Origin: Steroidobacteraceae bacterium
GTDB lineage: Bacteria > Pseudomonadota > Gammaproteobacteria > Steroidobacterales > Steroidobacteraceae
Reading direction: 5' to 3'
Length of the DNA: 64,000 nt
Assembly (NCBI GenBank): GCA_035502995.1
Contig: DATJTW010000023.1
Location: 53,445 to 117,444 of the forward strand
Below the pieces are notes generated by a model that was not told the origin of the DNA, did not search any database, and worked only from the letters and a program-made list of their open reading frames with translations. Positions within the stretch are counted from its first letter, which is position 1, and each line of letters opens with the position of its first letter. This document shows positions 2,174-62,431 of this stretch, in pieces. A program made the position numbers and the translations under genes.

Positions 2174-3754
2174 TCACGGCGCCGGCGCCTGGCAATCCGG
2201 CGTCATCAACGCGCGCAGGATGCCGTTCGTCCAGCCGAACCCGTCCTGCGTCGGGTACTCGCCGTCGCGCGCCGGTCCGGCGCCTTCGACGTCGTATTTC
2301 TCGACGAGCTTGTGGTCGCGCTCGTAGCCGGACAGGTTCTCGTGCGCCCAGCGCCAGGCGATCGCGCGTGACAGCTCCGCCTCGCCATATCGCGCCAGCC
2401 CCTGGATCGCGATCCACTGCAGCGGCGCCCAGCCGTTCGGCGCGTCCCATTGCTGCCCGCTCGCGATCGGCGTCGGCACGATGCCGCCCGGCCGCAGTAG
2501 ATAGGAGCGCAGCGCCGCCGCGGACTCGGCCGCCTGCTCGCGGGTCGCGACGTCGAAGTACAGCGGGTACATGCCGGCGGCGGTGACGAGCTCCGACGGC
2601 TTCTTCTCGCGCCACAGGTAATCCGTGAACGATCGCCGCGCCGGGTTCCACAGGATCCGGCGCATGCCACGCGCCCGCGTGTCGGCCACCGCCTTCGCGG
2701 CGCGCGCTTCCGCCTCGTTGCCGCCCGCCGCGTAACCCAGCGAAATCGCCACTTCGAGCTGGTACAGCAACGCGTTCAGATCCGGCGGCAGATAGTCCGC
2801 CGTGTGGATCGTCGCCAGCGTCTTCCCGTCCGTCAGCCAGCGCGCGCTGAAGTCCCAGCCGCTCTCGGCCGCCGCGCGCAGGTTGCGGTACACCTCGGCC
2901 TTTGGCCGTCCCGACACGCGCGCGGTTTCGACGTCTTCGCGGTACGACTCGTCGCGCGGACTCGCGCGGTCGTCCCAGTAGCGATTCAGCAGCTCGCCGC
3001 CGGCCAGCCGCACGACGCGCCGCCCGGCGGCGCCGCGCGGCACACCTTGCGCGCCCGCCATCCAGAAGTCGTGCTCCTTCCTCATCTGCGGCAGGTATTT
3101 CGCGTAGACGGCGTCGCCGTCCTTCTGCGCCACCAGCTTCACCATCGCGGCGAAGAACGGCGGCTGCGACCGCGACAGGTAGTAAGTCCGGTTGCCGTTC
3201 GGGATGTGGCCGACCTCGTCGATCAGGTGCGCGAAGTTGTCGACCATCTCCACGACCAGGTCGTGCCGGCCGGACGCCTCGAGCCCGATCATCGTGAAGT
3301 ACGAGTCCCAGTAGTAAACCTCGCGATATCGCCCGCCCGGCACGACGTACCGATGCGGCAGCGGCAGCAGCGAACTGCCGGCCTTCGCGGCATCCGGCCC
3401 GCGCGTCAACGCGGACCACAACGCGTCGATGTGCTGGCAGACATTGCGCGATGGATCGGCCTGGAAACCGCTGCCCGCGTGCTCCGGCTCGTCGAAATGC
3501 CGCGCGACGAACGCGCGCAGATCGAACCCCGTCGCGCCGCGCTCGCGCCGGTACGCCGCACCGATCGCCGCCGGATCCTCCTTCGGAATCGCGTCCGCGA
3601 ACGTCTTGCTGTCCGGGTAGATCGTCGAGCGCTGCACGGCGTCGAACAATTCCGGGTACAGCAGCGACGGCGGCTGCGGCGGTGCGGCGAGCGCGACGGC
3701 GGCGACGACGCCGGCTAACAGCCCGGCCAGGGATCGACCCATGCGGTGTTTCAT
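2174..3754 (-). CDS. treA: periplasmic trehalase (glycoside hydrolase family 37)
   Basis: 526-aa ORF with signal peptide (LAGLLAGVVAAVALAAPP). GH37 signatures PGGRYREVYYWDSYFTMIGL, LNRYWDD and ESGWDFSARW. Confidence 0.9.
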   Translation of the reverse strand: MKHRMGRSLAGLLAGVVAAVALAAPPQPPSLLYPELFDAVQRSTIYPDSKTFADAIPKEDPAAIGAAYRRERGATGFDLRAFVARHFDEPEHAGSGFQADPSRNVCQHIDALWSALTRGPDAAKAGSSLLPLPHRYVVPGGRYREVYYWDSYFTMIGLEASGRHDLVVEMVDNFAHLIDEVGHIPNGNRTYYLSRSQPPFFAAMVKLVAQKDGDAVYAKYLPQMRKEHDFWMAGAQGVPRGAAGRRVVRLAGGELLNRYWDDRASPRDESYREDVETARVSGRPKAEVYRNLRAAAESGWDFSARWLTDGKTLATIHTADYLPPDLNALLYQLEVAISLGYAAGGNEAEARAAKAVADTRARGMRRILWNPARRSFTDYLWREKKPSELVTAAGMYPLYFDVATREQAAESAAALRSYLLRPGGIVPTPIASGQQWDAPNGWAPLQWIAIQGLARYGEAELSRAIAWRWAHENLSGYERDHKLVEKYDVEGAGPARDGEYPTQDGFGWTNGILRALMTPDCQAPAP

Positions 3755-3874
3755 GTCCCGAACTTAAGCGCCCGCGGCGCGCGATGCCATCAGCGTGCGC
3801 CTGCATCCCGTCGGCGCGCCGAACCGTGCGACGAAATCCTGCGCGCCACCCGCGCACTGGTGCACGATCCGCCC

Positions 3875-5920
3875 ATGCGCACCCGCCGCCAGTTCCTCCG
3901 AGATGCGAGCGCCATCGGCGCCGTGTTCGTCATCGGCGATTCGAATGCCCACGTTCGCTATCCGCCGTGGGTCGAAAAACGCGAGTCCTTTCCGCAGGGC
4001 GTCGCCTCCGGCGACCCCGCGCCGACCAGCGTCATCCTCTGGACGCGCCGCCCGCCGGGCCAACCGGATCCCGCCGCCGCCGTCGCGCTGCTGCTGCAGG
4101 TCGCGGCCGATCCGGACTTCCGCAAGATCGTCGCCTCCGACGAAACGCTGCTCACCGCGCAGACCGACTACACCTGTCGCTTCCTCGTCGGCGGCCTGAA
4201 GCCCGCGACCGAATACTGGTATCGCTTCATCGATGGCACCGGCGCCGGCAGCCGCGTGGGCCGCACGATCACCGCGCCTGCCGATCACGACGCGCGCCCG
4301 GTGCAATTCGCGTTCGTCAGCTGCCAGGACGTCGGCCAGAGCGCCTGCAACGCGTACCGCCGCATGATCTGGGAAGACGAGCGCCGCCCCCGTGCCGAGC
4401 AGCTCGGCTTCGTGCTGCATCTCGGCGATTTCATCTACGAGGTGTGCTGGTACCCCGAGGACAAGCCCGGCGGCCGACGCTACTCGCGTCGCATTCGCGA
4501 CCTGTTCCGTTATCCCGACGGCGAGAATCTCCACGACTACCACCTGCCGGTGACGCTCGAGGACTACCGCACCGCCTACCGCGCCTATCTACAGGACCCG
4601 GACCTGCAGGATGCCCGCGCGCGTTTCCCGTTCGTGCCCGTGTGGGACAACCACGAGTTCTCCTGGCAGGGCTTCCAGGGCATCCAGGTGTTCGACGGCA
4701 AACAACGTCCGGCCCAGACGCGCAAGGTCGCGGCCAACCAGGCGTGGTGGGAATACCAGCCGGCGAGAGTCCTCCAGCCCCGTGGCGTCGACCTGAAGGG
4801 TTTCACCGCGCCCGCGGTGACGAACGCACCGATCACCGCCTTCGACGCCGCCGGCTTCGCCCGCGAACCCAACAACATCGCCGCCGTCGATTCGCTGCGC
4901 ATCCAGCGCTCGTTCCGCTACGGCCGCAACACCGAGCTGATCCTCACCGACAACCGCAGCTACAAGACGGCCGACGTCGACCTCGGCGACTTCTCGCCCG
5001 ACGAATTCCCGCAGTTCTCCGACGAGGACGCGGCGCGCATCCTCGACGACGGCCGCGCTTACGCCGGCGGCAAACCACCGGCCACCGTGCACTTCGCCGG
5101 CAAGGACCTGCCGAACCCGCAGAAAGACGCCGCGCCGCAGTCCTATCTGGGCATCGAGCAACGCGCCTGGCTCATCGACAAGCTGCGCGCCAGCAAGGCG
5201 CCGTGGAAGGTCTGGGGCCACAGCTTCGGCACGCTGGCGTGGCGCTCGGATCTGCAGAACCTGCCCACCGGCCTCGGACCGTCGTGGCCTGGCAAGGGCT
5301 ACGGCCTGATCAACGGCGGCTTCTACGCCGAGCACGCCGAGATCTTCGGCGCCGTGCGCAAACACGGCATCACCGGCCTCGCGATCGTCGCGGGCGACAA
5401 ACATTCCTTCTGGGCGGGCCTGGCCTGCGCGGATCTGCCGCCGCGCGATTACGACCCGGTCGCCGTGGAGTTCGTCACCGGCTCGATCTCGGCGCTCGGG
5501 ATGGCCGAAGCGTCGCCGTACGCGATCAAGCCGGATCATCCGCTGCGCGCGTTGTATCTCGTCGGCACGAAGGAGAGCTTCGTGCCGTCGATCAACTTCA
5601 CGATCCTGCACGGCGTGCGCGCGGCGCTGGCGCTCGCGGCCGGCGACGCCGCGAAGGCGCGCGCGCTGCGCAATCCGGACGTCTCGCCGCAGCTCTCGTT
5701 CGTCGATCTCGCCGGGCACGGATACTCCGTGGTCACGACGACGCCGACCGCACTGGAAACGCAGTTCGTTTGCATTCCGCCGCCGCTCGAACGCAGCGCG
5801 ACGCCGGATGGCGGACCGCTGCGCTACAAGGTCACGCATCGCACGGCGTTGTGGAAGCCCGGCGAGCGGCCGACACTCGAGCGCACGCGCGTCGAGGGCG
5901 ACGTCGAGCACTCCATCTGA
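3875..5920 (+). CDS. phoD: Tat-exported PhoD-family alkaline phosphatase/phosphodiesterase
   Basis: Track ORF 3746..5920 trimmed to ATG 3875, which gives a twin-arginine signal (MRTRRQFLRDASAIGAVFV). PhoD-type metallophosphatase motifs FAFVSCQD, LHLGDFIYE, VWDNHEF, AGDKHSFWA. Confidence 0.85.
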   Translation: MRTRRQFLRDASAIGAVFVIGDSNAHVRYPPWVEKRESFPQGVASGDPAPTSVILWTRRPPGQPDPAAAVALLLQVAADPDFRKIVASDETLLTAQTDYTCRFLVGGLKPATEYWYRFIDGTGAGSRVGRTITAPADHDARPVQFAFVSCQDVGQSACNAYRRMIWEDERRPRAEQLGFVLHLGDFIYEVCWYPEDKPGGRRYSRRIRDLFRYPDGENLHDYHLPVTLEDYRTAYRAYLQDPDLQDARARFPFVPVWDNHEFSWQGFQGIQVFDGKQRPAQTRKVAANQAWWEYQPARVLQPRGVDLKGFTAPAVTNAPITAFDAAGFAREPNNIAAVDSLRIQRSFRYGRNTELILTDNRSYKTADVDLGDFSPDEFPQFSDEDAARILDDGRAYAGGKPPATVHFAGKDLPNPQKDAAPQSYLGIEQRAWLIDKLRASKAPWKVWGHSFGTLAWRSDLQNLPTGLGPSWPGKGYGLINGGFYAEHAEIFGAVRKHGITGLAIVAGDKHSFWAGLACADLPPRDYDPVAVEFVTGSISALGMAEASPYAIKPDHPLRALYLVGTKESFVPSINFTILHGVRAALALAAGDAAKARALRNPDVSPQLSFVDLAGHGYSVVTTTPTALETQFVCIPPPLERSATPDGGPLRYKVTHRTALWKPGERPTLERTRVEGDVEHSI

Positions 5921-7309: not shown

Positions 7310-7459
7310 GGTTCCCTCCCAGGAACTCCATCGGCCGGTAGTTAGCCAGGGCGCGGCCGGCCTGTCAGCTGCCGTGGGGTGACCGGGAACCGGATCCGCG
7401 GGTCCGGTTACTCATGGAGGTCCGAACCTTCTTACCCGAACGAGTCAGGAGCTATACCA

Positions 7460-10020: not shown

Positions 10021-11316
10021 CTAACTACCGGCCGGTGCCGGCCACTCGAGCGCCAGCCGCGCACCGCCGAGCTCGCGGCTCGCGCCCGCGATCACGCGGC
10101 CGCGATGCAGCGACGCGATGCGCGCCACTATCGCCAGCCCGAGGCCGAACCCGCCGGTCTCGCGATTGCGGCTGGTGTCGAGCCGCGTGAACGCGCGGAA
10201 GATCGCGGCGCGATCCGCTTCGGGAATTCCTTCGCCATCGTCCTCGACGACCAGCCGGAAGAGGTCGTAGTCGCGCGTCACTTCGATGCGCACGCGCTGC
10301 TTCGCATACCGCAGCGCGTTAACCAGCAGGTTGTTCAACGCGAGCTCCATCAGCCGCGGCTCCATCCACGCGGACTGCAGATCGTCGGCGCGGACCACGT
10401 CGACGCGGCGCTCGTGCGGCGGACAGGACGCGACCACCTGCTTCAGCCACGGCTCGAGCATCACGTCCTGCACGTCCATGCGCAGGCCGGGATGATCGAG
10501 CCGCGCGTAATCGAGCATGTCCGAGATCAGGTCGTCTATCTGCTGTACGTCCGTGTTCACGGCGCGCAGCTGCGCATGCAGGCTCTCGTCGACTTCGCCC
10601 TCGAGCACGGCGACGGCGAACCGCACGCGCGCCAGCGGCGTGCGCATCTCGTGCGACAGCGCGGCCGTCATCTCCTTCTGGCTCTGGATGAGCTGGCTGA
10701 CCTTGCCGGACATGTCGTCGAGGTTGGTGGCCAGCCCCTTGAGCTGCTTCGCGTGGCGCGCGGTGTCGAGCGGCTCGCGATAGTCGCTCGCGAACTTCTG
10801 CGACGCGTCGGTCAGCAGCCGCAGGTCGATCAGCAGCGGCCGCAGCCACAGGCCGACGATCAGCAGGATCGACGCGTAGAACAACACGGGCAGGAACCGC
10901 ACCCACACGCTCTCGTGCGGCGGGTCGAATGGGCCGAGCCGCAGCACCGCGTTCAGCGCCGGCGCGTTCCACAGATAGAAGACGTGGCCGGCGTCGTCGA
11001 GCAGCTCGCGCGGGCCGTTGTCCTGCGGCAGCGCGCCGGCGATGTCGCCCGTCTCCAGCAGCGCGAGATCCAGGCCGAGGCGGCTGCCGAGCTCGGTGGC
11101 GCGCGCGGCGCGTTCGTCGGCCGGGGCGGCGGCGAGCTCCGCTTCCATGAGATGCAGCGTGGAGACCAGCCACGGATCCGCAGCGCGCGACTGGCGCGAC
11201 TGCAGCGCGCCGAAGCCCAGGTCGAGCAGGATCGCGGCGACCAGCAATCCGCCGGCCAGCGCGATGTACGAGCGGATGAACAGCCCGCGTTCGCCCGCGG
11301 ACAACCACGTCCTCAC
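10021..11316 (-). CDS. two-component sensor histidine kinase (EnvZ/PhoQ-like architecture)
   Basis: 431-aa ORF with two N-terminal hydrophobic segments. H-box LSHEMRTPLA; ATPase boxes LLVNALRYA, EDDGEGIP, GGFGLGLAIV. GTG start lies 1 nt after the regulator stop. Confidence 0.9.
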   Translation of the reverse strand: MRTWLSAGERGLFIRSYIALAGGLLVAAILLDLGFGALQSRQSRAADPWLVSTLHLMEAELAAAPADERAARATELGSRLGLDLALLETGDIAGALPQDNGPRELLDDAGHVFYLWNAPALNAVLRLGPFDPPHESVWVRFLPVLFYASILLIVGLWLRPLLIDLRLLTDASQKFASDYREPLDTARHAKQLKGLATNLDDMSGKVSQLIQSQKEMTAALSHEMRTPLARVRFAVAVLEGEVDESLHAQLRAVNTDVQQIDDLISDMLDYARLDHPGLRMDVQDVMLEPWLKQVVASCPPHERRVDVVRADDLQSAWMEPRLMELALNNLLVNALRYAKQRVRIEVTRDYDLFRLVVEDDGEGIPEADRAAIFRAFTRLDTSRNRETGGFGLGLAIVARIASLHRGRVIAGASRELGGARLALEWPAPAGS

Positions 11317-11317: not shown

Positions 11318-12028
11318 TCAGGCCCAGGCGTCCGGGACGAGTAGATAGCCCTTGCCCCACACCGTCTTGATGCGCGTCGGCGCCGCGGCGTCGTCGCCGA
11401 GCTTGCGGCGCAGCTTGGATACGCGGCCGTCGATCGAGCGGTCGAGGCCGTCGTAGTCGATGCCGCGCATCGTGCGGAACACCTCGTCGCGGCTGACCAG
11501 CTCGCCGGCGCGGTGCGCCAGCAGGCTGAGCAGCTCGAACTCCTGCGTGGTCAGCGTCACGGCCGTTTCGCCCAGCCACACCTCGCGCGACGTGTCGCTG
11601 ATGCGCAGCGTGCCGAGCAACACGTCCGGCTTTCGCTCGCTGCCCGTGGTCGAGTTTCGCTCGGCGCGGCGCAGCAGCGCGCGGACGCGCGCCAGCAGCA
11701 CCATCGGGTCCACGGGCTTCATCACGTAATCATCGGCGCCGGCCTCGAGGCCGATGACGTGATCGAGATCGGTGTCCTTCGCGGTCAGGATCAGGATGGG
11801 CACGTCGTGCACTCGGCGCAGCTCGCGGCAGATGGAGAGTCCGTCCTTGCCGGGCAGCAGCAGGTCGAGCAGCACGAGCCGCGGCTTCTCCTGCGTGAAA
11901 CGCTCGAGCGCGCGGTCGCCGCGCGCCTCGACTTTCACGCGCAGGCCGTTCTGCTCCAGGTAGGTAGCCGTCAGCTCGGCGAGGCGCGGATCGTCCTCGA
12001 TCAGCAGGATGTCGGTGGCGCTGCTCAC
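11318..12028 (-). CDS. OmpR-family response regulator
   Basis: Track ORF 11318..12325 trimmed to GTG 12028 (VSSATDILLIEDD), 236 aa. Receiver motifs IEDD, LLDLLLPGKDG, ILTAKD; winged-helix end TVWGKGYLL. The GTG overlaps the upstream stop (GTGA). Confidence 0.9.
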   Translation of the reverse strand: MSSATDILLIEDDPRLAELTATYLEQNGLRVKVEARGDRALERFTQEKPRLVLLDLLLPGKDGLSICRELRRVHDVPILILTAKDTDLDHVIGLEAGADDYVMKPVDPMVLLARVRALLRRAERNSTTGSERKPDVLLGTLRISDTSREVWLGETAVTLTTQEFELLSLLAHRAGELVSRDEVFRTMRGIDYDGLDRSIDGRVSKLRRKLGDDAAAPTRIKTVWGKGYLLVPDAWA

Positions 12029-12429
12029 AACACGTCCCACACGTGGCGCGCGCGCCGCTCGCGGCGCCGGTCGTCCGAGCCGACCTTGAGCACGGTCACC
12101 TTGACCTCGGCGAGATGGTCCGTGCCGCCCGGCCGGCCGAGCCAGTACGTGAACTCCTCGCTGACCTCGCGTTCCTGCAGCCACGCGCCGGACAGCGCGC
12201 TGGCCCAGCAATGCAGCGGATCGCCCTGCGTGCTGTCGTTGAGGCAGTACTCGTCGCTGCCGGCGCTCTTCCAGCGCACGTCGAAACTCATCATGCAGCT
12301 CGTCGCCGCCTTGTCGAGCACGCACAGCAGCGGCTTGACGACCAGCTTGACGGGCGCCGGCCCCGCGGCGGCCGCGGGCAGGGAGAACACGGCGCCGGCC
12401 GCGAACGTGGCTAACAACTTGCGAACCAT
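12025..12429 (-). CDS. secreted small protein, DUF3019-like
   Basis: Last 134 aa of track ORF 12025..13359, starting at ATG 12429. Signal peptide MVRKLLATFAAGAVFSLPAAAAG and conserved Cys. The family name is my recollection of the proteins that accompany MipA/OmpV and OmpR/HK genes. Confidence 0.6.
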   Translation of the reverse strand: MVRKLLATFAAGAVFSLPAAAAGPAPVKLVVKPLLCVLDKAATSCMMSFDVRWKSAGSDEYCLNDSTQGDPLHCWASALSGAWLQEREVSEEFTYWLGRPGGTDHLAEVKVTVLKVGSDDRRRERRARHVWDVL

Positions 12430-13349
12430 CAGAACGTCCAGGCGAATCCGCCGAAATAACCGAGCACGTAATCGTCCTTCACCAGCGGGCTGTCCGCCAC
12501 GCTCGACTGCAGCCGCTCGTAGTTGGCCGACAGCGCGAGGCGCAGATTCTTGGTCAGGTAGTAGCTGCTGCGCAAACCGGCCTGCCAGCCGAACCCGCCG
12601 TCGGCGTGGTACTCGGCGACGGTGAAGCTGGCCTCGTCGTCGTGCACGCCCCAGTAGTAGTCGTTCAGCTTGCGGCTCTTGTATTCGATGCCCAGCGACG
12701 GCGAGATCGAGAAGCGCCCGCGCGTGATGCGGTAGTCGTAGTCCGCGCCGATCTCGAAGCCGTCGTGCGTGCCGCTGACATCGCGGAACGCGTGCACCGT
12801 GGCCGAGCCCCATTCGCCGCCGAACAGGCTCTCGAAGCCGGCCTCGATCGCGTAGTCGCGCTCCGGCGGCTTGAACGGCAGCGTTTCCTCGACCGGCGGC
12901 ACGTCGCCACCGAGGGTGGGCGGCGGGGGGTTGCCCTGGTTGGTCAGCGAGGTCGTGTTGCCGGCGGAGAGATACCGGAAGTTGATGTAGCGCGTGTTGG
13001 TCTTCGCGAAGAACGCGCGGTCGGTGTTCACGCGCGCGACCGCGTTCAGCGTGAACGCCGGGCGGTCGAGCAGCTCGAAGCCGAGGTCGCCGTTGTCGAA
13101 GAACCAGCGTTCGCCGAACCAGGCGATGTCGAGGTCGACGAGGATCGGGATCTCGTCCGACTGGATCAGCGGGTTCGTGCGCTGGCCGTAACCGAGCGCG
13201 ACGCCGAGCCGCCAGTGTTTCTCGGCCACGGCGGCGGCCGGCGGCGTCGCGTTCACGGCCGCTTGTGCCGCCGCGTCGGGATCCGCATGCGCGAGCCCCG
13301 CGAGCGCCCAAAGGGCCGCGACTTTCAAGGAGTTGGTTGCGATCGACAC
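12429..13349 (-). CDS. MipA/OmpV-family outer-membrane protein
   Basis: Track ORF 12429..13526. Likely start is GTG 13349 (or TTG 13328), giving the signal end ...KVAALWALAGLAHA/DP. Beta-barrel pattern with C-terminal YFGGFAWTF. Stop overlaps the next start by 1 nt. Confidence 0.75.
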   Translation of the reverse strand: MSIATNSLKVAALWALAGLAHADPDAAAQAAVNATPPAAAVAEKHWRLGVALGYGQRTNPLIQSDEIPILVDLDIAWFGERWFFDNGDLGFELLDRPAFTLNAVARVNTDRAFFAKTNTRYINFRYLSAGNTTSLTNQGNPPPPTLGGDVPPVEETLPFKPPERDYAIEAGFESLFGGEWGSATVHAFRDVSGTHDGFEIGADYDYRITRGRFSISPSLGIEYKSRKLNDYYWGVHDDEASFTVAEYHADGGFGWQAGLRSSYYLTKNLRLALSANYERLQSSVADSPLVKDDYVLGYFGGFAWTF

Positions 13350-18652: not shown

Positions 18653-19287
18653 AGGTTTGCACCGGGTAGATAGGCGCGCAGCGCGGCGCGGGTGGTGTCG
18701 GCGGATTCGAACTGGATCGCGTGCAGGCCGCTCTCGCGCGCGGCGACGACGTTCTTCAGCAGGTCGTCGATGAACACGCTCTCGGCGGGCACGATGCCGG
18801 TCCGCTCGACGAGGTGCTTGTAGATCGCCGGCTCGGGCTTGATCAGCAGGATGGCGCCGGAGATCACGAGTTGTTTGAAGTGTGCGAAGAAGCCGTGGGC
18901 CTTCACGAGGTATTCGTACGTGCTCACCGGCATGTTGGAGAGCACGTAGAGGTGCACGCCGGCGGCGGCCAGATCCTCGACGAGCTCGATCGAGCCGGGG
19001 ACGGGATGCAGCGATGCGTTGGCGGTCTGGAGCAGGCGGCGCATCTGCTCGGGCGAGAGGCCGGCGCGCTGGCCGAACTGCGTGACCGCGCGGTCGACGT
19101 CGATGGAGCCGCGGTCGAACTCGTGCCACTCCGGGTGCTGGAAGATCTCGCGGAGCACCAGCGCCTGCTGGGCGGGATCGGGGACGACGGTGGCGATGAA
19201 GGCCGGCGGGTCCCACCTGAGGAGGACACCGCCGACGTCGAAGACGACGTTGCGGATGGGCATGCCCTCAAGGGTAAATGGGGACAT
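18649..19287 (-). CDS. HAD-superfamily hydrolase (subfamily IA-like)
   Basis: 212-aa ORF. Motif I VVFDVGGVLL, then LSNM and FIDD motifs. The true start may be ATG 19263 (MPIRNVVFDVGG), because ATG 19287 lies inside the intergenic repeat. Confidence 0.8.
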   Translation of the reverse strand: MSPFTLEGMPIRNVVFDVGGVLLRWDPPAFIATVVPDPAQQALVLREIFQHPEWHEFDRGSIDVDRAVTQFGQRAGLSPEQMRRLLQTANASLHPVPGSIELVEDLAAAGVHLYVLSNMPVSTYEYLVKAHGFFAHFKQLVISGAILLIKPEPAIYKHLVERTGIVPAESVFIDDLLKNVVAARESGLHAIQFESADTTRAALRAYLPGANL

Positions 19288-25860: not shown

Positions 25861-26023
25861 TCCGCGCCGTGACGCAGTAGATAGGCCGCTGCGCCTTTCC
25901 CTTACGCGCCCCCGGGCAGGGTGGCGTTTCCGTTCCATAATCGCCTGACAATAATCCGCGCGGCGGCGCCGAGCGGAAGATCGGTCACGGACGGCGGCAA
26001 TGCCGCGCCGCTAAGCTGGCCGC

Positions 26024-31799: not shown

Positions 31800-31845
31800 T
31801 CAAATTAATGGTGTGCGCGATGCGCGTTGTGGATATAAACGCGCC

Positions 31846-47890: not shown

Positions 47891-50800
47891 ATGCGAACGA
47901 TCAGGATGGGACTGTGCTTGGCGCTGTGGGCGCTCGCGGTGCAGGTCGGGCGAGCGGCAGACGCACCGCCGCCGCCGATGGCGATGGGCGGTCCGCCGGT
48001 TCCGCCGGGCTGCCAGTTCACGGGATTCCCGAAAGCCGGCGCGAAGTCGCCGGCAGACCTCTCCGGCCCGCTACCGGTTGCGGACTATCTCGACGCGCTG
48101 TTCGACTGCACCGATTTGCGCTTCAACGGGGCCGAGCTCTACAAGCCGGCCAACGCTTGGCTGGAAAACGACACGAAGCAGTACTCGGCGCTGCTCGCGC
48201 GCGGCAAGTTCTCCTGGCTGATCGTGCCGGCGCAGACGCAGTACTACGGATTCGACGGCATCGAGCGCTCCCTGCTGAGCGCGGAGATCGCGGACGCGTT
48301 CGTGGCACACGGCGCGGCACCCGATCCGATGCTCGCGGCACGCGCGCTGGGCGAGATCCGCCGCCGCTACGAGCCCGTGGCGGCACCGCTCCTGGCGCAG
48401 TCGATCGGCGCCACGCGAATGCTCGAGACCTATGTGGGTCACGACGGAAAACGCGCGATGACCCTGACGCTGCGTTTGATGGATTGCAGCGTCGGCGGGA
48501 CGTGCCGTCTGCTCAAGCAGCACGACTGGCGCGCGCTGCCGTTCACCGACGAGAAGCCGCCGTTCCTCGTGGTGCGCGGGATGCGCGACGCGCTGGTCGG
48601 CGAGATGCTGGGCATGAAGGCGAACGCCGCGCGGCCAGTGGCGCCGCGGCCGAAACGCGCGGGCACGGACCTCTCGGCCCTCGGCACCGCGCCCACCGAC
48701 GCCGAGCCCGCGCTGGTCTCGGGGGTGCTCGCGGCGCTCATGCCCGGTGACGACGAGACCGGTCGCGATCGTCTCTCGGTGCTCGCACTGCGCGATGCAC
48801 TGAACGCGACGCCGTCGAACGCGAACCGGGTCCGCGCTGCGGCCGCGGCCTTCCGGCTGAACCGCCGACCGTACGCGCTGGCGTTGTTGCAGGGGCTGAA
48901 CGATCCCGCGGCGGTGACGCTCCGCGAACTCCTGAACGGCAACCTGCCCGAGGCGCAGACCGGTCTCGCGTCCGTCGAGCCGGCCGATCTGAAACTGATC
49001 CTGGCATTCGCCGTGCAGGATCTGCGCAGCCGCTACGATCGCCCCGCCGACTTCGACCCGGCCGCAGCGGCGCGGTTGTTCGGCGCGAACGACAGTCCGT
49101 GGTCCGGCGTCGTGTTCCGGCGCGCGGGCGACCTCGACAACTGGAGCCGCGCGGATGCCGTGACGCCCAAGCGGCTGCTCGATGCCGCCTTCCCCGTCGC
49201 GGGGCAGGATCTCGCCTCGGTGCTGAAGGGCATGCGCGTCGTCGGACGCAACGCGGATCCCGACATCGCGCTCACCCTCGCGAGCCTGCGTCATCTGCGC
49301 CAGGCGCAAGGCCGGTTGTCTCCGGCGGATTGCTGCTCGGCGAACCGCGCGAACTCCGCCTGGCCCATCTACTGGCTCGCGGAATCGCTGCTGCAGTCGA
49401 ACGCGATCAAGGCGACCGCCTTCCAGCTGCTCACGCAGGGCGAACCCGAGGAGGCGAAACGGTTGCTGGGGATCTACCAGGAGTTCTACGCCGGCCAGCC
49501 GTATTTCGAAGTACTGCGTTTCCGCATCGACGCCGAGCTCGCGTCGCGGGCGTCGAACGAGATGGCGTCGCGCCTCATGGCGGAAGCCGAAGCCGCCGAG
49601 AAATCCGCGGCGTACTGGTCGCAGGGCCAAACGTACTCGGGCCAGTTGTCGGCGCTGCGCGGCACCGCGACGATGATCCCGCGCATGGCGTATACGCAGG
49701 ACTTCCCGCCGCGGGCCGCCTGGCCGCCGCTGGATGCGACACCGGGACCGTCCTCGTGGGCGTGTGACGTGCTGCGCTACGCCACGGTCGACGTGATGGC
49801 AGCGTCGTTCTGCCTGATGGCGGCGCCACCGGGTCGCGCCGATGCGCTGCGCGCGGACGTGGCCGCGCGGTTCCACGGCAATGCGCAGGCCGCGGCGATG
49901 TTGCGGCCCTACCTGCCGCGCGCCGCGAACGCGGATCCCGTCGCCGAGTTCCGCACCGCGATCGCGGGCGACCCGGAATCGTGGGACAACTATCGCGACC
50001 TCGGCCTGCTGCTGCTGAAGCGCGATGCCAACTACCCGGAAGCGCAGAAGGTCTATCTCTCCTACCCGGAGTTCAAGCGCACCCGGCATGCGTACCCGGT
50101 GCGCGTGTCGAACGATGCGTACGACGTCGGCTCCGAGCTCTTCTGGCGCGGCCAGTACGAGCTCGCGCGCCCGCTCTACGAACTCGCGGCGAACCTCGAC
50201 ACGGGTTCCAACGCGTCGATGTCGAGCGCGATCCGGCTGGCGCTGATCGACGGCGACTACGCGACCGCCATGGCCGGCTCGCGCGAGCGCGGCCAGCGCT
50301 ACCCGAACCCGTACGCCTTTCGCGACTATCTGTCGCTGCTGCACGTCCTCGGGCGCGGCGACGAGGCGCGCGCCGGTTTCGCGCAGATCTCCGGCGCCTT
50401 CGACGATCCGTCGGCGTGGGTCGCCGAGCTCGTCGGGCAGCGCATGCAGGCGCAGACCGCGGACCAGTTCAAGGCCTGGATCCTCTCGGACCCGATCCGC
50501 CAGGCGCGCTACCGCGGTCGCCACTACGCGCCTATCTACGCACTGTGGTGGATGACAACCGATCGCAAACCCGGCGCGGACTTCGCGGCGCTGATGCGCA
50601 AGATCGAGGCCGATGAAAGGCGCACCGTCGAATACGACGGCATCTCGATGGGCCGGCCGCATCCGAAGATGGAAGGCGGCCTGGAGATCGTGCGGCCGTC
50701 GCAGTTCCGCGGCCCCAAGGCGCCGAAGCTGCCGCCGGAATCGAACGGACCGTCGGAGTACGTGCTGCTCGCGGATGCGCTGGCAGCGCACTACGCCGGC

Positions 50801-55670: not shown

Positions 55671-56849
55671 ATGTCGACCAATCTCCGGACGCTCGTCCGC
55701 TCATCCGTCTTTTGCTCGTTGATCCTGCTCGCGACGGCGACCTTCGCCTCCGAGCAACCGCCGACGCTCGCCGTCGGTTCGCCGATGCCGTCGTTCTCGC
55801 TGCCCGGCGTCGACGGCAAGACCTACACCGAGAAGAGCTTCGCGAAGGCGAAGATCCTCGTGCTGGTCTTCACCTGCGCGCACTGCCCGACGGCCCAGGC
55901 CTACCAGGAGCGCATCAAGAAGCTGGTGACCGACTACTCGCCGAAAGGCGTCACGCTCGTCGCGATCAATCCGAATCACGCGGACTCGGTGCGGCTCGAC
56001 GAGCTCGCGTACTCCGACCTCTCCGACTCGTTCGACGAGATGAAGGAGCGCGCGAAGATGGAGAAGTTCAACTTCGTGTGGCTCGACGACGGCCCGAAGC
56101 AGGAGGTCTCGCACAAGTACGGCCCGGTCGCCACGCCGCACGTGTTCATCTTCGACGCCGCGCGCAAGCTCCGCTTCGAAGGCCGCATCGACGACGCCGA
56201 GCGTGAATCGCAGGCGACCTCGCACGACACGCGCAACGCGCTCGACGCACTGCTGGCCGGCAAGGAACCGCCCGTCACGTCGACGCGCGTGTTCGGCTGC
56301 TCGGTGAAGTGGGCCGACAAGGTGGTCGAGTACGCGAAGTTCAAGGAGCGCTGGGCCGCGGAGCCGGTGACGCTCGAGAAGGCGGACATCGCCAAGCTCA
56401 AGGAGATCCGCGCCAACAAGGACTCCGGCAAGCTGCGCTTCATCAACGTGTGGGCGACGTGGTGCGGTCCGTGCATCGCGGAGTTCGACGAACTGGTCGA
56501 GCACAACCTGCGCTTCCGCATCCGCCAGTTCGAGATGGTGACGATCTCGGCGGATTCGCCGGACGACGAAGCGACGGTGAAGGACTTCCTGCAGAAAAAG
56601 CACGCGTCGATGAAGAACTACATCATCCCGTCCGAGCAGAAGGACGCGTTCTTCGACGCGATCGATCCCGCGACGACGTGGAAGGGCCAGCTGCCGTATA
56701 CGATCATCGTCAACGAGAAGGGCGAGGTGGTGTACCGCGAGTACGGCGCGCTGTCGTTCCTGAAGATGCGCCGCGCGATCGTGCCCGAGCTGAACCGCAT
56801 CAAGCCCTGGGGTGGTCTGTCGCCCATCAAGCCGGGCGCCGCGCCGTAA
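55671..56849 (+). CDS. secreted protein with two thioredoxin-fold (TlpA/redoxin-like) domains
   Basis: In-frame part of track ORF 54174..56849, starting at ATG 55671 (GGGGG upstream). Signal peptide present. The first domain has FTCAHCP and the second has WATWCGPC. Confidence 0.75.
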   Translation: MSTNLRTLVRSSVFCSLILLATATFASEQPPTLAVGSPMPSFSLPGVDGKTYTEKSFAKAKILVLVFTCAHCPTAQAYQERIKKLVTDYSPKGVTLVAINPNHADSVRLDELAYSDLSDSFDEMKERAKMEKFNFVWLDDGPKQEVSHKYGPVATPHVFIFDAARKLRFEGRIDDAERESQATSHDTRNALDALLAGKEPPVTSTRVFGCSVKWADKVVEYAKFKERWAAEPVTLEKADIAKLKEIRANKDSGKLRFINVWATWCGPCIAEFDELVEHNLRFRIRQFEMVTISADSPDDEATVKDFLQKKHASMKNYIIPSEQKDAFFDAIDPATTWKGQLPYTIIVNEKGEVVYREYGALSFLKMRRAIVPELNRIKPWGGLSPIKPGAAP

Positions 56850-56850
56850 T

Positions 56851-56890
56851 GGGGACAGTCCCCGTTTGCTGGCAAAAGGGGACAGTCACG
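56851..56890. repeat. REP-like element, family 1
   Basis: GGGGACAGTCCCCGTTTGCTGGCAAAAGGGGACAGTCACG matches 19280-19319 at 33/40 positions. Internal arms GGGGAC/GTCCCC and CCCCGTTTGC/GCAAAAGGGG. It fills the gap between two genes and ends 11 nt before the next ATG. Confidence 0.75.
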
Positions 56891-56901
56891 AAAGGACGAC
56901 C

Positions 56902-57536: not shown

Positions 57537-60257
57537 TTGCGCGCGCGCCTGAAAAATTTCGGTCGACTCGGAAATCTCGGCATCACCGCCCGGCTGGTGA
57601 TCTCGCTGGCGTGCGTCGCCGTGCTGGCCGCCGCTGCCAACTTCTTCGTCGAGAGCGGCGTCACCGTCGTCACGCTGGTGTCGCCGGCCGCGTCGCCCGC
57701 GCAGGCTGCAGCGCCCGCCCTCGCGCCGCGATCCCCCGCCTCGGCGTCTGCCGCCGCGTCGCAGCGTGACGCCTCGCGCCTCGCGCTGTCGCTCGGCGCC
57801 TTCGATCAGACCGTGCGCACGGCGCTCGAAGCCACCGCCGACTCCGCGCCGACTCACCAGCTCGCGATGTCGTCGCTGACGCGCGCCGCCGAGGGCTACG
57901 TCCCGGGCGACGAGGCCGGCATCGCGGACGCACTCGCGATGCGCGACACCGTGCTCGCGCACGGCCGCGACTCGCGGCCGCTGCTCGAGGCCTCGCATCG
58001 CCGCCGCGTGGCGCTCGACGAATACTCGACGACGCTGTCGACGATGAGCACGCGGCTGCAGAAGTCGATCGACCGCGCCTGGAAGATCATGGGCCGCGTC
58101 GTCGCGCGGCAGTCGTTGATGAAACTCAGCGCGCAGCTCGACGACATCCAGTCCCTCTTCTCCGCGCGCGATGCGTCCCGGCCGCTGGATGCGCTGTCCG
58201 TGCAGCTGGCGCAGGCGGAGCAGGTGTTCGCCATGACGCTGCAGAAGAACGCCGACGCGCTGGTCAAATCGCAGGGCGCGGACTGGGTCGACGGCATGCG
58301 CACCGACGTCGTGAGCCTCGACGCCGCGCGCCACGCGCTGACCCTCGCGGAAAAGCGTCGCGCCCAGCTCGCGACGCGCTACTTCGCGGAGTCGGAGCGG
58401 CTCCAGCGCAGGCTGTCGGAGGTCCGCCCGCGGGCCGCGGACCTCGCGGTCACCGCGCCGCAGCCGAAGGAACGCGTGTCGGCAGCATCGCTGACGACCG
58501 TGCCGGCGGCATCATTCACGCCCGCGTCGGCCACCGACCGGCGCGCCGCCGCCGAAACCACCACGACGACCGTCGCCCGTCGCCCGCTCGTCGCCAGCCT
58601 GAGCCTCGTCGTGCTCGGGCTGCTCACCTGGCTCAGCATCGTCACCATCCTCGGCGTCGTGCGCCAGGTGCGCCGGCTCAAGGACGCGACGCGCCGGCTC
58701 GCCAACGGCGAGTGGATAGACCCGGTGCGCCCGGTCGGCATCCGCGAGCTCGACGAGCTCGGTGCCGCCGTCGATTCGATGGGGCGCCAGCTCGCCGCCG
58801 CGCAGCAGATCAACCTCGAGGCGCAGCGCCGGCTCGAGGGCACCGTCGCCGAGCGCACGCGCGATCTCAAGGCGCTCGCCGAGAAGGATCCGCTCACCGG
58901 CCTGCCGAACCGCCGCCAGCTGTTCACCGAGCTCGACGAGGCGATCGAGTGGGCGCATGCCAGCAAACAACTCGTCGGCGTCTTCTACCTGGACGTCGAC
59001 AACTTCAAGACGCTGAACGACAGCATGGGCCACGCGTTCGGCGACCGCGTGTTGATCGAGATCTCGCGGCGTCTCGAGGCCACGGCACAGGGTTTCGGAT
59101 TCGCCGGCCGGCTCGGCGGCGACGAATTCATGATCGTGCAGGTCGAGGCGCGCACCACCGACGAGATCCGCGCGGCCGGCGACGAGATCGTGCGCGCCTT
59201 CGAGGCGCCGATCGGGATCGAGGGGCGCGAGATCATCGTCAGCGTCAGTGTCGGCGCCAGCGTCTACCCGGACCACGAGGAGGATTCAGAGGCGCTGCTG
59301 CGCGCGGCGGATGCCGCGTTGTTCTCCGCGAAGGAGCTCGGCCGCAGCCGCGTCGCGATGTTCACGCCGGAGCTGCTGGAGCGCGCCACCGCGAAGTTCG
59401 CCATCGAGCAGCGGCTGCGCCGCGCGATCGAGAAGCGCGAGTTCGAGTTGTTCTATCAACCCGAGATCAACGTGCAGACGCTGGAGGTCTCGCTCGTGGA
59501 AGCGCTGATCCGTTGGCGCATGCCGGACGGCAGCTACCAGTGCCCGGGCGAATTCCTCGCCGTGGCCGAGGAGTTCGGGCTGATCGCCGAGATCGACGAG
59601 TGGGTGCTGAACACCGCGCTCGACGCGGCGGCGCAGTGGCACCACGGTCCGTGGCCCGAGGCCTGCGTCGCGATCAACGTCTCGCCGCGGCAGCTGCTGG
59701 ACCAGCGCTTCGTCGGCAAGCTGCGCGACCTGCTCGCGCGTCATCGCCTGCCGGCGCGTTGTGTCGAGCTGGAGCTGACGGAGTCGGTGCTGCAGACCGG
59801 CCCGGCGACCATCAAGGCGCTGACCGAGCTGCGCGCGCTCGGCATCGCCATCGCGCTCGACGATTTCGGCACCGGTTATTCATCCATCGCGTCGCTGGAA
59901 CAACTGCCACTGACGCGCGTGAAGCTGGATCGCAGCCTGATCGCGCGCATCGACAGCAGCGCGCGGTCGGCGTCCATCGCGCGGGCCACGCTCGGGTTGT
60001 GCGCGGAGCTGGGGCTCGAAGTGACGGCCGAAGGCGTCGAGAGAGTGGAGCAGTTCTCGGCACTGCTCGGCTTCGGCGCGATCTCGCTGCAGGGCTATCT
60101 ACTGGCCGAGCCGGCGCCGCGCGGCGAGGTGCTAGCGGCGCTGCATCGCGTGCCCGGCTACTGCCAGGAGCTGGTGCTCTCGTGCAGCGCGCCGACGGCG
60201 ACCGCGCGGCTGCGCCACATCGAGGCGCATGCCGCGCTGGCGGCAACGCCCGCCTGA
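57537..60257 (+). CDS. membrane-anchored GGDEF-EAL (diguanylate cyclase/phosphodiesterase) protein with HAMP-like linker
   Basis: 906-aa ORF with TTG start. TM segments near the N-terminus and at about residue 340. GGDEF (GRLGGDEFMIV). EAL-domain motifs EFELFYQPEI, VEALIRW, ELTES, DDFGTGYSS, KLDRSL. Confidence 0.88.
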   Translation: MRARLKNFGRLGNLGITARLVISLACVAVLAAAANFFVESGVTVVTLVSPAASPAQAAAPALAPRSPASASAAASQRDASRLALSLGAFDQTVRTALEATADSAPTHQLAMSSLTRAAEGYVPGDEAGIADALAMRDTVLAHGRDSRPLLEASHRRRVALDEYSTTLSTMSTRLQKSIDRAWKIMGRVVARQSLMKLSAQLDDIQSLFSARDASRPLDALSVQLAQAEQVFAMTLQKNADALVKSQGADWVDGMRTDVVSLDAARHALTLAEKRRAQLATRYFAESERLQRRLSEVRPRAADLAVTAPQPKERVSAASLTTVPAASFTPASATDRRAAAETTTTTVARRPLVASLSLVVLGLLTWLSIVTILGVVRQVRRLKDATRRLANGEWIDPVRPVGIRELDELGAAVDSMGRQLAAAQQINLEAQRRLEGTVAERTRDLKALAEKDPLTGLPNRRQLFTELDEAIEWAHASKQLVGVFYLDVDNFKTLNDSMGHAFGDRVLIEISRRLEATAQGFGFAGRLGGDEFMIVQVEARTTDEIRAAGDEIVRAFEAPIGIEGREIIVSVSVGASVYPDHEEDSEALLRAADAALFSAKELGRSRVAMFTPELLERATAKFAIEQRLRRAIEKREFELFYQPEINVQTLEVSLVEALIRWRMPDGSYQCPGEFLAVAEEFGLIAEIDEWVLNTALDAAAQWHHGPWPEACVAINVSPRQLLDQRFVGKLRDLLARHRLPARCVELELTESVLQTGPATIKALTELRALGIAIALDDFGTGYSSIASLEQLPLTRVKLDRSLIARIDSSARSASIARATLGLCAELGLEVTAEGVERVEQFSALLGFGAISLQGYLLAEPAPRGEVLAALHRVPGYCQELVLSCSAPTATARLRHIEAHAALAATPA

Positions 60258-60291: not shown

Positions 60292-60378
60292 TCAGAACCA
60301 GCCGCACGCAAAACCGATCGCGACGAACAGGGTCAGCATCAACCAGGGCGACATCTTGGTATTGCTCTTCATGGTCAT
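60292..60378 (-). CDS. possible 28-aa hydrophobic micro-protein
   Basis: Not in the ORF track (too short). ATG 60378 overlaps the XRE gene stop (ATGA). It encodes MTMKSNTKMSPWLMLTLFVAIGFACGWF, with one hydrophobic helix. Confidence 0.35.
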   Translation of the reverse strand: MTMKSNTKMSPWLMLTLFVAIGFACGWF

Positions 60379-60569: not shown

Positions 60570-60964
60570 TGCGCCCGCAACTTGCAGTAGACGCCGTGGA
60601 ACAGGCTGACGGTGCCCCAGCTCAGTCCGAACACCATCCAGATCACGAACATGCTGAGCCGCGGGTAACCGACGTTCTCGAGGAATCCCCACGTCAGCGA
60701 GAAGAGCGCGGTGACGCCGCCGGCGATCGACAGCGCCTGCAGGTTGCGCAGGCGGACGAACTCGTCCATGCGGCCGACCTGGCGCATGAACGCCCACAGG
60801 CCGAGAAGCGCGGGGATCATCGGGCTCAGCATCAACGCCGTGCGGGCAATGCCGTCCGCGACGTGCGGCGCAGCGCGCAAGGAGACGGACACGACGATGG
60901 CGTACAGGACCAGCGAGCCGCCCATCTCGACGAGGAATTTCTGGGTTGCCTCGCGTTCACGCAT
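60566..60964 (-). CDS. small integral membrane protein co-transcribed with the XRE regulator
   Basis: Track ORF 60566..60985 trimmed to ATG 60964 (GGAG about 7 nt upstream). Four hydrophobic segments. Confidence 0.65.
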   Translation of the reverse strand: MREREATQKFLVEMGGSLVLYAIVVSVSLRAAPHVADGIARTALMLSPMIPALLGLWAFMRQVGRMDEFVRLRNLQALSIAGGVTALFSLTWGFLENVGYPRLSMFVIWMVFGLSWGTVSLFHGVYCKLRAQ

Positions 60965-61032
60965 GTCGAATCTCCACCCTGTCAATGATGCTTTACAGGG
61001 TAGGGTGCGACGATGGGCTTGTCAAGGTTCCT

Positions 61033-61554
61033 TTACAAGGCGGTTTCGCGCGGCGCGACGGCCAGCAATTCGGCGATCGCCGGTTGTTTGGCGGCGGAGT
61101 ACGCCAGCAGTCGCGTGGCGCCTGCCGCGACCGCGGCGCGTTTGGCCGCGGCGTATCGTTCGCGTGCGATCGGGTCGGCGCGCAGGTGGTCGCGCAGCCG
61201 CAGGTTGTTGGACCAGTGATCGCCGTCGCGACGGACGACGTGCAGGTTGAAGGACACGGGGCCGCGCAGACGCAGATAGCGCCGCTCCGGCACGCCGGCC
61301 TCGCCGAGATCCTCGTATCCGAGCACCACGAGCTGCGCGACCAGCGCGGCGGGCGGCGGCCAGTGCGTCACGCCCAGCATCAGGTCGACGACGGGTTTCG
61401 CGGTCAGGCCGGGAACCGCGGTGCTGCCGATGTGTTCGATTGCCTCCGGCGTGATGCCCGGCACGCCGCGGAGCCGGCGCCGCTCGGCTTCGAATGCGGC
61501 TGGCCACGAAGGGTCGTAGGGAGCCAGCGTCACCGTTTCGTCGAGTCCGCTCAC
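61033..61554 (-). CDS. GrpB-family (UPF0157) protein
   Basis: 173-aa ORF with GTG start. GrpB pattern LAPYDPSWPAAFEAE ... IEHIGSTAVPGLTAKPVVDLMLGV. Confidence 0.8.
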   Translation of the reverse strand: MSGLDETVTLAPYDPSWPAAFEAERRRLRGVPGITPEAIEHIGSTAVPGLTAKPVVDLMLGVTHWPPPAALVAQLVVLGYEDLGEAGVPERRYLRLRGPVSFNLHVVRRDGDHWSNNLRLRDHLRADPIARERYAAAKRAAVAAGATRLLAYSAAKQPAIAELLAVAPRETAL

Positions 61555-61573
61555 GGCGTCCCCGCCGCGGCGC

Positions 61574-62431
61574 TCACTGGAACGTGTTGCAGCTATCTAC
61601 CTGGCCGCTGGCGAATCCCTTGCGGAACCACTCCTGGCGCTGCTTGCCGGAGCCGTGCGTGAACGTCTCCTGGTGCACGTTGCCCTGGATGCGGCGCTGG
61701 ATCGTGTCGTCGCCGACGGCCTGCGCCGCGGTCAGCGCCTCGTCGATGTCGCCCGCTTCGACGAGCTGGCGCGAGCTGTCCGCGTAGTGCGCCCAGATGC
61801 CGGCGTAGCAGTCCGCCTGCAGCTCCATGCGCACCTGCCACTGGTTCTGTTCTTCCTGCGAGCGCGCCTGCTGCTGCGCGGCGCGCACCTTGTCCGAGAT
61901 GCCGGTAATGGTCTGCACGTGGTGGCCGACCTCGTGCGCGATCACGTACGCCTTCGCGAAATCGCCCTGCGCGGCGAACTCGGTCTCGAGTTGTTTGAAG
62001 AAGGCGAGGTCGATGTACACCTTCTGGTCCGCGGGACAATAGAAAGGCCCGGCCGCCGACGTCGCGGAACCGCAGCCGGTGTTGATGCCCTCGGAGAACA
62101 GCGCGAGTTTGGGCTGCGGATATTCGCGGCCGGCCTGCTGGAAGATCGCGGTCCAGGTTTCCTCGGTATCGCCGAGCACGTGCGCGACGAACTGGCCGCC
62201 TTCGTCGGTGGGCGCGCCGCTGGCGATCTCTTCTTCGGCCTGCGGCGTGCCGCTGCCGCCCATCAGTCCCATGACGACACGCGGATCGATGCCGAAGTAC
62301 CACGCGGCCAGCAGCGCGACGATGCCGCCGATGCCGAACTTCATGCCGCCGCCGCCGAATCCGCCGCCGCCAGTGCTCCGGCCACGGTAGTCCTGGATGT
62401 TCTGGCTCTCTCTGCTCTGGCGCCAACGCAT
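61574..62431 (-). CDS. ypfJ: YpfJ-like neutral zinc metallopeptidase
   Basis: Track ORF 61574..62872 trimmed to ATG 62431 (285 aa). Gly-rich N-terminus plus TM (GGGGFGGGGMKFGIGGIVALLAAWYF). HExxH motif (VIAHEVGHHVQ). Confidence 0.8.
   Translation of the reverse strand: MRWRQSRESQNIQDYRGRSTGGGGFGGGGMKFGIGGIVALLAAWYFGIDPRVVMGLMGGSGTPQAEEEIASGAPTDEGGQFVAHVLGDTEETWTAIFQQAGREYPQPKLALFSEGINTGCGSATSAAGPFYCPADQKVYIDLAFFKQLETEFAAQGDFAKAYVIAHEVGHHVQTITGISDKVRAAQQQARSQEEQNQWQVRMELQADCYAGIWAHYADSSRQLVEAGDIDEALTAAQAVGDDTIQRRIQGNVHQETFTHGSGKQRQEWFRKGFASGQVDSCNTFQ

Follow-up and report, generated by a model that had tools for sequence, protein, structure and literature searches.

To our knowledge, sequence-specific DNA uptake has been established only in the Neisseriaceae and the Pasteurellaceae. 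The DNA uptake sequence (DUS) of the Neisseriaceae occurs in dialects and reportedly has the minor pilin ComP as its receptor, and the receptor of the uptake signal sequence (USS) of the Pasteurellaceae (Hin- and Apl-type) is unknown. Other short words are also over-represented in bacterial genomes, among them the Chi sites, which are G/T-rich, and the octamer HIP1 (GCGATCGC) of cyanobacteria. Here we analysed a 64-kb stretch of DNA from a Steroidobacteraceae bacterium (the window; positions 53445-117444 of contig C23 of the genome called G000 below, 4.85 Mb in 129 contigs, 67.7% GC). The best matches of a protein from the window came from Steroidobacteraceae metagenome-assembled genomes, at 66-72% identity, which points to a Steroidobacteraceae-like gammaproteobacterium. 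An earlier reading of its letters, the original prediction, had reported an AT-rich octamer, CTATCTAC or, on the other strand, GTAGATAG, mostly as the rare codon pair TAT-CTA. Our data indicate that CTATCTAC belongs to a family of double-strand DNA words built on the core CTAAC[T/A]A, of which (GA)CTAACTAC(Y) is the best form in G000. The family is orientation-neutral, evenly spaced, lineage-specific and divided into dialects, and it overrides codon usage. We think it quite possible, if somewhat short of probable, that the word family is a DUS-like tag of self-DNA.

The word family resembles DUS in several respects. It consists of a short, non-palindromic word with about 10^3 copies per genome, found on both strands and in genes as well as spacers, which is lineage-specific and differs by one letter between related species, and ComP_DUS-family minor pilins are encoded. 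Unlike DUS, the word is rich in AT although the genome has 68% GC, and it includes stops, which leads to mismatch proxies in genes. Its density is 0.4 per kb compared with about 1 per kb for DUS, it lacks close inverted pairs at terminators, and its host belongs to another class (Gammaproteobacteria, Steroidobacteraceae-like). With USS the word shares even spacing, equal use of the strands, a coding frame bias to cheap peptides, subclade-specific variants and a cloud of one-off variants. The 9-bp core of USS is framed by AT-rich flanks, which were not seen around the word, and the two-domain Sxy/TfoX regulates competence in the Pasteurellaceae, whereas only a TfoX_N-domain protein was found here. 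A literature search on the words, alone and together, and on over-represented octamers in GC-rich genomes returned only primers and unrelated matches.

The excess of CTATCTAC is genome-wide. The genome has 528 copies (271 and 257 by strand), compared with 41 expected from a zero-order model. In called open reading frames (ORFs), 401 sense copies were found against 14.7 when synonymous codons were shuffled within genes, a 27-fold excess over the kind of codon-aware background that the original prediction had proposed. The gene calls are crude, being stop-to-stop ORFs scored by codon usage, and frame counts are therefore approximate. The window has 15 exact copies (10 CTATCTAC and 5 GTAGATAG on the plus strand), compared with a mean of 0.15 and a maximum of 2 in 100 dinucleotide-preserving shuffles. 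This is the maximum of forty 64-kb windows, which have a mean of 8, so that the window is a local peak on top of a genome-wide phenomenon. The concern that the copy number might be a local fluctuation was thus justified in part for the window, but not for the genome. We give next to no credence to the view that local chance or the composition of GC-rich genomes is the whole explanation. The window does stand at twice the genome mean density, and a maximal-order Markov model built from 7-mers expects 503 copies against the 528 observed, but those 7-mers themselves belong to the enriched word. Chance and composition are refuted by the synonymous shuffle and by the confinement of the excess to one subclade, since about 190 family members outside it and 700 class members, of similar or other GC, showed none.

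Several observations indicate that the excess belongs to a nucleotide word and not to a codon pair or a peptide. The base before TAT is fixed: position 1 is C in 528 copies, compared with A in 11, G in 7 and T in 2, and position 5 is C in 528 compared with 3, 1 and 3 for the other bases. Words that differ by one base at position 1, 3 or 5 are rarer by 16- to 500-fold, even the GC-richer ones. The pair TAT-CTA occurs 412 times against 10 expected and spells 13% of all 3,200 Tyr-Leu dipeptides, and TAC-CTA is depleted (8 vs 39). The share of eligible sites occupied by CTATCTAC is 35% for x-Tyr-Leu-[HLPQR], 19% for [APST]-Ile-Tyr (NCT-ATC-TAC), 9% for Leu-Ser-Thr (CTA-TCT-ACN) and, in antisense, 3.8% for Val-Asp-[Arg/Ser] (GTA-GAT-AGN). 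Relative to the products of codon frequencies, the enrichment is about 8- to 240-fold, with 47-fold for the antisense sites. As a local control, NCT makes up 21% of codons before ATC-TAC, compared with 0.7% before ATC followed by any other codon. The suspicion that selection or drive acts on the nucleotide word and not on protein is therefore borne out by the fixed C, by the enrichment in all open frames, antisense and in non-coding DNA, and by persistence in orthologues. Independently of the word family, a general context bias strongly favours NAT codons before codons starting with C throughout the genome (GAT-CTC 3.3-fold, TAT-CTC 3.0-fold, AAT-CTC 3.1-fold and GAT-CCG 2.8-fold).

An RNA or translation signal, in which TAT-CTA, AAA-CTA and TTG-TTA would be pause sites or sites of an mRNA-binding factor, is highly improbable. 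No other codon pair of the genome is as over-represented as these three, and most coding copies of CTATCTAC are sense (395 vs 29 antisense in genes) and share a single frame (288 of the 424 in called ORFs). The absence of copies from 30 kb of highly expressed genes (nuo, ftsH, carAB and dnaK among them) also speaks for such a signal. However, the sense bias follows from TAG stops, which close two of the three antisense frames. The wobble base of the preceding codon is fixed, and the other sense frames, the antisense strand and non-coding DNA (14- to 40-fold) are enriched as well. In tandem spacers a family word lies opposite to transcription 38 times and along it 20 times, and the unconstrained optimum of the family contains stop codons. 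A codon-pair or translational signal was rejected because the word is not limited to one reading frame and its flanking bases are fixed; the translational pause considered in the original prediction is not supported.

Non-coding DNA reveals the form that the word takes when it is free of codons. In 387 kb without coding potential in any frame, CTAACTAC/GTAGTTAG is the top 8-mer, with about 100 copies against 2.2 (about 40-fold), and CTATCTAC (32 vs 2.3), CAAACTAC (40 vs 5) and CTAACAAC (42 vs 3.5) are also enriched. The mismatch profile of CTAACTAC in this set is strict at C1, A3, C5 and A7 and weak at C8; position 2 prefers T to A, position 4 prefers A to G or T, and position 6 prefers T to A. 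The flanks have only weak preferences for G at -2, A at -1 and Y at +9. One strand of CTAACTAC includes TAA and the other includes TAG twice, and the word cannot be coded in the frame C/NNN/CTA/C. Because of these stop codons, genes instead use rare synonymous codons to spell stop-free proxies that differ from CTAACTAC by one mismatch, namely CTATCTAC (Tyr-Leu) and CAAACTAC (Lys-Leu); TTG-TTA-GG (Leu-Leu-Gly), which carries CTAACAA, is likewise spelled with rare synonymous codons. Observed counts against the synonymous shuffles were 288 vs 13.9 for CAAACTAC, spelled C-AAA-CTA-C, and 126 vs 1.0 for TTGTTAGG, which includes CTAACAA and is spelled TTG-TTA-GG; the same controls also bring out CTAACTAC/GTAGTTAG and CTAACAAC/GTTGTTAG. 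Of 250 copies of CTAACTAC, 44 enclose the stop codon of a gene, and many others lie directly after TGA or just ahead of ATG. The use of stop-free proxies and of words over gene ends explains why the octamer looked codon-locked to the earlier reader, who had taken CTATCTAC as the unit; the non-coding counts show that it is only one stop-free proxy of a wider family with CTAACTAC as its unconstrained optimum. A single longer bipartite motif was rejected, as the flanks are weak and family members avoid co-occurrence (20 close pairs vs 42 expected). An origin from repetitive extragenic palindromes (REP) or miniature inverted-repeat transposable elements (MITE) was rejected as well, given variable flanks and orthologous alignments without indels.

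The family words located in the window are as follows.
2497-2504, minus strand: CTATCTAC, sense in a minus-strand gene, TCC TAT CTA CTG (S-Y-L-L).
4585-4592, plus strand: CTATCTAC, sense, GCC TAT CTA CAG (A-Y-L-Q).
11341-11348, minus strand: CTATCTAC, GGC TAT CTA CTC close to the 3' end of the minus-strand ORF 11321-12478.
18666-18673, minus strand: CTATCTAC, sense, GCC TAT CTA CCC.
20832-20839, minus strand: CTATCTAC, sense, CTC TAT CTA CCC.
25877-25884, minus strand: CTATCTAC, intergenic (GTAGATAG on the plus strand), about 17 nt past a TGA stop.
28124-28131, plus strand: CTATCTAC in a tryptophan-halogenase gene, AAC TAT CTA CCC (N-Y-L-P).
32568-32575, plus strand: CTATCTAC in a halogenase paralogue, AAC TAT CTA CCC (N-Y-L-P).
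34449-34456, plus strand: CTATCTAC in a Na+/H+ exchanger gene, CCC TAT CTA CTG.
37208-37215, plus strand: CTATCTAC, sense, GTC TAT CTA CTG.
43404-43411, plus strand: CTATCTAC in a GH9 glycosidase gene, GAC TAT CTA CTG.
44411-44418, plus strand: CTATCTAC in the last codons of a gene, CCC TAT CTA CCG CGG TAG.
50532-50539, plus strand: CTATCTAC in another sense frame, CCT ATC TAC (P-I-Y).
60095-60102, plus strand: CTATCTAC, sense, GGC TAT CTA CTG.
61593-61600, plus strand: CTATCTAC at the boundary of two divergent genes, either non-coding or antisense to the first part of ORF 61036-61596.
35435-35442, plus strand: CTATCTAT, a one-off variant, TCC TAT CTA TCG.
10021-10028, plus strand: CTAACTAC immediately past a TGA stop (GGCTGA-CTAACTAC).
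7338-7345, minus strand: CTAACTAC in the frame CTA ACT ACC (L-T-T).
21978-21985, minus strand: CTAACTAC in the frame ACT AAC TAC (T-N-Y).
249-256, plus strand: CAAACTAC, ATC AAA CTA CAC (K-L), one of ten copies in the window (starts 249, 1572, 17250 on the minus strand, 25548, 40152, 46470, 51228, 57072, 63816 on the minus strand, and one more).
27019-27026, plus strand: TTGTTAGG, TTG TTA GGC (L-L-G), which includes the CTAACAA dialect word.
30675-30682 and 62978-62985: further copies of TTGTTAGG.
12411-12418: CTAACAAC.

An exact search recovered precisely the 15 octamer copies of the original prediction at the same coordinates, and the near copy CTATCTAT was present where it had been placed. 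The TAT-CTA frame had been claimed for 12 of the 15; ten are read as NNC-TAT-CTA-CNN in the ORF calls, and 11341 and 44411 join them when the reading is extended to the 3' ends of the adjacent genes. The other frame at 50532 and the intergenic position of 25877 were also as described. The copy at 61593, said to be antisense, has its best frame on the opposite strand, but it lies at a divergent gene boundary and may be non-coding. The 17-nt string claimed to be identical in two halogenase paralogues is AACTATCTACCCTGCGA, at SNYLPC in both (PF04820). At 44411-44432, CTATCTAC at the gene end is followed by CGCGGTAGTTCG, and the TAG stop lies within a one-off family word in reverse orientation (GTAGTTCG, compared with GTAGTTAG). 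The tryptophan-halogenase-family paralogues (PF04820; 27414-28907 and about 31717-33366) cluster beside the Na+/H+ exchanger, a porin and the GH9 glycosidase; the original prediction had listed a third copy. Among other repeats, a REP-like palindromic element (TAATGGGGACAGTCCCC...AAAAGGGGACAGTCAC) lies at 56848-56893, immediately past a TAA stop, and has about 200 non-coding copies genome-wide. In non-coding DNA, REP-type words such as GGGGACAG, AATGGGGA and TCCCCATT show 17- to 22-fold enrichment, and TTTGCTAGG, from a second repeat, shows 12- to 15-fold enrichment.

Ten family words make up 1,907 sites in the genome, or 0.39 per kb (about one per 2.5 kb), on both strands and in genes and spacers. 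Their density is alike in convergent, divergent and tandem spacers. The sites are spaced more evenly than random, with a coefficient of variation of 0.92 compared with 1.03 +/- 0.024, and gaps shorter than 200 nt number 74 compared with 146 +/- 11. Close pairs are only half as frequent as chance would give, and few inverted pairs occur. With the direction of replication taken from GC3 skew, there was no replication-strand polarity: Tyr-Leu occupancy was 0.339 on the leading and 0.339 on the lagging strand in the 21 contigs with clear skew, and a 400-kb stretch of the complete genome G015 gave 17/42 vs 16/46. The dependence on replichores that the original prediction had proposed to look for was thus absent in both genomes. 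The largest desert without a family word covers 30 kb (contig C82 of G000, 42069-72189) and contains nuo, secG, glmM, folP, ftsH, carAB, dapB, dnaJ-dnaK-grpE, hrcA and recN. As these are core, highly expressed genes, the desert reflects codon cost and not foreignness, and deserts as foreign DNA were rejected on this ground. Strong codon selection evidently outweighs the word in the most highly expressed core genes. A 14-kb island of 59% GC is also without a family word.

The arrangement of the sites bears on whether the word is bound by another protein of chromosome maintenance or self-recognition, such as a nucleoid or segregation factor, or acts like Chi in restraining a helicase-nuclease, for example AddAB. 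If about one site every few kb were selected for, the number and even spacing of the sites would be explained, and the deficit of close pairs, the use of both strands and the lineage-differing variants are in agreement with this. Chi is likewise an over-represented, species-specific word of 5-8 nt that marks self DNA for RecBCD or AddAB, and the G-strand forms of the word, GTAGTTAG and GTTGTTAG, are G/T-rich like Chi. However, Chi, KOPS and other architecture-imparting words show replication polarity, which is lacking here, and a Chi- or KOPS-type polarity was rejected in G000 and G015. RecC (PF04257) was not found in the five genomes searched (G000, G084, G136, G048 and G111; AddAB was not searched for), and no known Chi is enriched as strongly as this AT-rich word, at 20- to 40-fold. 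No nucleoid protein known to us has some 2,000 exact 8-mer sites together with dialects at the species level, which counts against a nucleoid factor. We regard a site of this kind as unlikely. Of the mechanisms listed in the original prediction, a site recognised by a protein or linked to recombination is the one that stays live; the replication orientation expected of a Chi-type site is absent.

A sequence-specific repair or mutation bias could also generate words without a function, for example a very-short-patch (VSP) type of correction tied to a methyltransferase, as suspected for HIP1. HIP1 is likewise a hyper-abundant octamer that occurs in genes in all frames, is conserved beyond codon needs and has no known function; however, it is palindromic, GC-rich and linked to a methyltransferase, whereas the word here is asymmetric and AT-rich. 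In non-coding DNA the C-to-T neighbours at strict positions are missing (TTAACTAC 1 vs 1.6; CTAATTAC 0 vs 1.5) and other one-off neighbours are 2- to 15-fold enriched, as a repair bias would have it. Clustered nucleotide changes at some sites (for example CACTGGTTGCCC vs AACTATCTACCC) and the lineage-specific distribution, which fits an enzyme gained or lost, point in the same direction. However, neither Vsr (PF03852) nor a C5-cytosine methyltransferase (PF00145) was found in the same five genomes, three of which carry the word (N6 and N4 methylases were not searched for). Known VSP systems restore C, whereas these words are AT-rich, and a purely mutational process does not predict that the count of short gaps should be halved. 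A repair bias is therefore quite unlikely, and the Dcm/Vsr type raised in the original prediction has no machinery that we could find. MutH (PF02976), the nicking endonuclease that sites of methyl-directed mismatch repair (Dam/MutH type) would call for, was not found in the five genomes either.

The distribution among relatives is narrow. Other genomes were sampled at 60-400 kb. CTATCTAC and CAAACTAC are jointly enriched in 16 of 18 sampled species of the same genus in the Genome Taxonomy Database (GTDB), with 300-880 copies compared with 60-165 for controls. This excess is absent from G016, G017 and G047, from 39 other genera of the family (200 genomes) and from 400 genomes of the class (about 240 families), and it is confined to one subclade of the genus. 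G016 has 1,738 copies of CTAACAAC (control 93) and only 23 of CTATCTAC, and G047 has 442 of CTAACAAC. In another genus (g30), CTAACAAC occurs 742 times in G084 and 835 times in G136, compared with 5-10 times in their congeners G048, G111 and G157. De novo k-mer analysis recovered CTAACAAC with the same strict positions in G016, and CTAACAAA/GCTAACAA in G084, with about one CTAACAA per 1.4 kb; G084 and G136 carry CTAACAA(A). The same test found no hyper-abundant word in G048, and CTAAC[A/G]AC was above control in none of 300 class genomes. No form of the word was seen in 35 other genera. The dialects have the core CTAAC in common and vary in the 3' half, which is TA-C, AA-C or AA-A.

Comparison with G015 (285 kb aligned, 78% identity) shows that the word is kept and replaced at orthologous sites. 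CTATCTAC is identical at 19 of 38 sites, in line with the conservation that the original prediction had asked about. Most of the remaining sites have a preferred-codon spelling (CTACCTGC, TTACCTGC) or a one-step intermediate (CTATCTGC). Family words are identical at 43% of aligned sites, compared with 29% for other 8-mers with five A/T. Four sites of the window illustrate this.
28124: CTATCTAC in G000; CTACCTGC in G005 and G018 and GTACCTGC in G015, all TAC-CTG.
34449: CTATCTAC (Tyr-Leu) in G000; the sister word CAAACTAC (Lys-Leu) in G015.
43404: CTATCTAC in G000 and G015; adjoining TAC CTC TTG TTA G in G018.
32568: AAC TAT CTA CCC (N-Y-L-P) in G000; CAC TGG TTG CCC (H-W-L-P) in G015.
The word thus persists, turns over and sometimes accompanies amino-acid changes. 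The 17-nt identity of the halogenase paralogues, together with HWLP in G015 against NYLP, suggests either gene conversion between paralogues or independent rewriting by the word.

The genome encodes competence machinery. A minor-pilin operon encodes a GspH/FimT-like (FimT/U-like) protein, PilW, PilY1 and a PilE-like pilin that matches the Pfam family ComP_DUS (PF16732) with about 71-72 bits. A second ComP_DUS-family pilin adjoins ispH (54 bits), and ComEA, ComEC and a TfoX_N protein are also encoded. The two ComP_DUS-family pilins lie at C120:12803-13438 and C129:28748-29026. Because the features of the word family match the signature of a DUS and a type IV pilus and competence toolkit is present, we rated a DUS- or USS-like tag as the likeliest explanation. 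In such a system, a component of the type IV pilus or competence apparatus would favour DNA that carries the word. Through this bias in uptake and subsequent homologous recombination, the word would then spread across the shared genome at all places where its codon cost can be borne. The spread would end where a second copy nearby brings no gain, and shifts in receptor specificity between species might yield the one-letter dialects.

Several points weigh against a tag of this kind. We infer its function from the genomic signature alone. The density of 0.4 per kb is below that of DUS or USS, and this genome, with its few close pairs (20 vs 42 expected), lacks the close inverted pairs that Neisseria DUS often form at terminators. 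The frames differ, in that CAAACTAC in NCA-AAC-TAC is enriched only about 1.6- to 3-fold; uneven frame enrichment fits a graded affinity, though it is incompletely explained. ComEC and ComEA are also present in the word-free G048 and G111, and ComP_DUS-family pilins in the word-free G048. The competence machinery is thus necessary but does not discriminate between word-bearing and word-free relatives. The TfoX_N protein of G000 has only the N-terminal domain of TfoX. TfoX_N was present in all nine word-bearing genomes sampled and, in g30, in exactly the two of five that bear the word, but also in 52 of 122 genomes without the two counted words, and four TfoX_N genomes from other genera had no hyper-abundant word at all. 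TfoX was therefore rejected as the discriminating gene. As there are only about two independent origins, the association of TfoX_N with the word is weak and merely suggestive. Extra ComEA-like (HHH_3) paralogues of about 126-141 aa were found in G084 (C78:14772-14939) and G136 (C4:122049-122216 and C64:245-412), and not in G048, G111 and G157, nor in G000, G015 and G016.

It is quite possible, if less than probable, that a soil Steroidobacteraceae-like genus, together with some members of a second one, uses a third DUS family of independent origin, which would have an AT-rich, stop-loaded core, CTAAC[T/A]A, would rewrite a third of eligible Tyr-Leu sites and would switch dialects between species. 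In a bolder version, the CTAAC core, as in the candidate soil Verrucomicrobium word GCCTAACGA, may be a recognition module shared or exchanged across phyla.

If a self-DNA tag is correct, this would be the third case of sequence-specific uptake, in abundant and poorly studied soil bacteria, and the tagging of self-DNA would be more widespread. An AT-rich word in a GC-rich genome provides a clean system in which to measure how drive at the DNA level overrides codon usage and even the choice of amino acids. The dialect switches between sister species offer natural experiments to identify the receptor, with CTAACTAC, CTAACAAC or no word within one comparison and G084 and G136 against G048, G111 and G157 in another. 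For annotation, the word explains puzzling clusters of rare Leu codons, and it serves as a marker that distinguishes native from recently acquired DNA in these bacteria.

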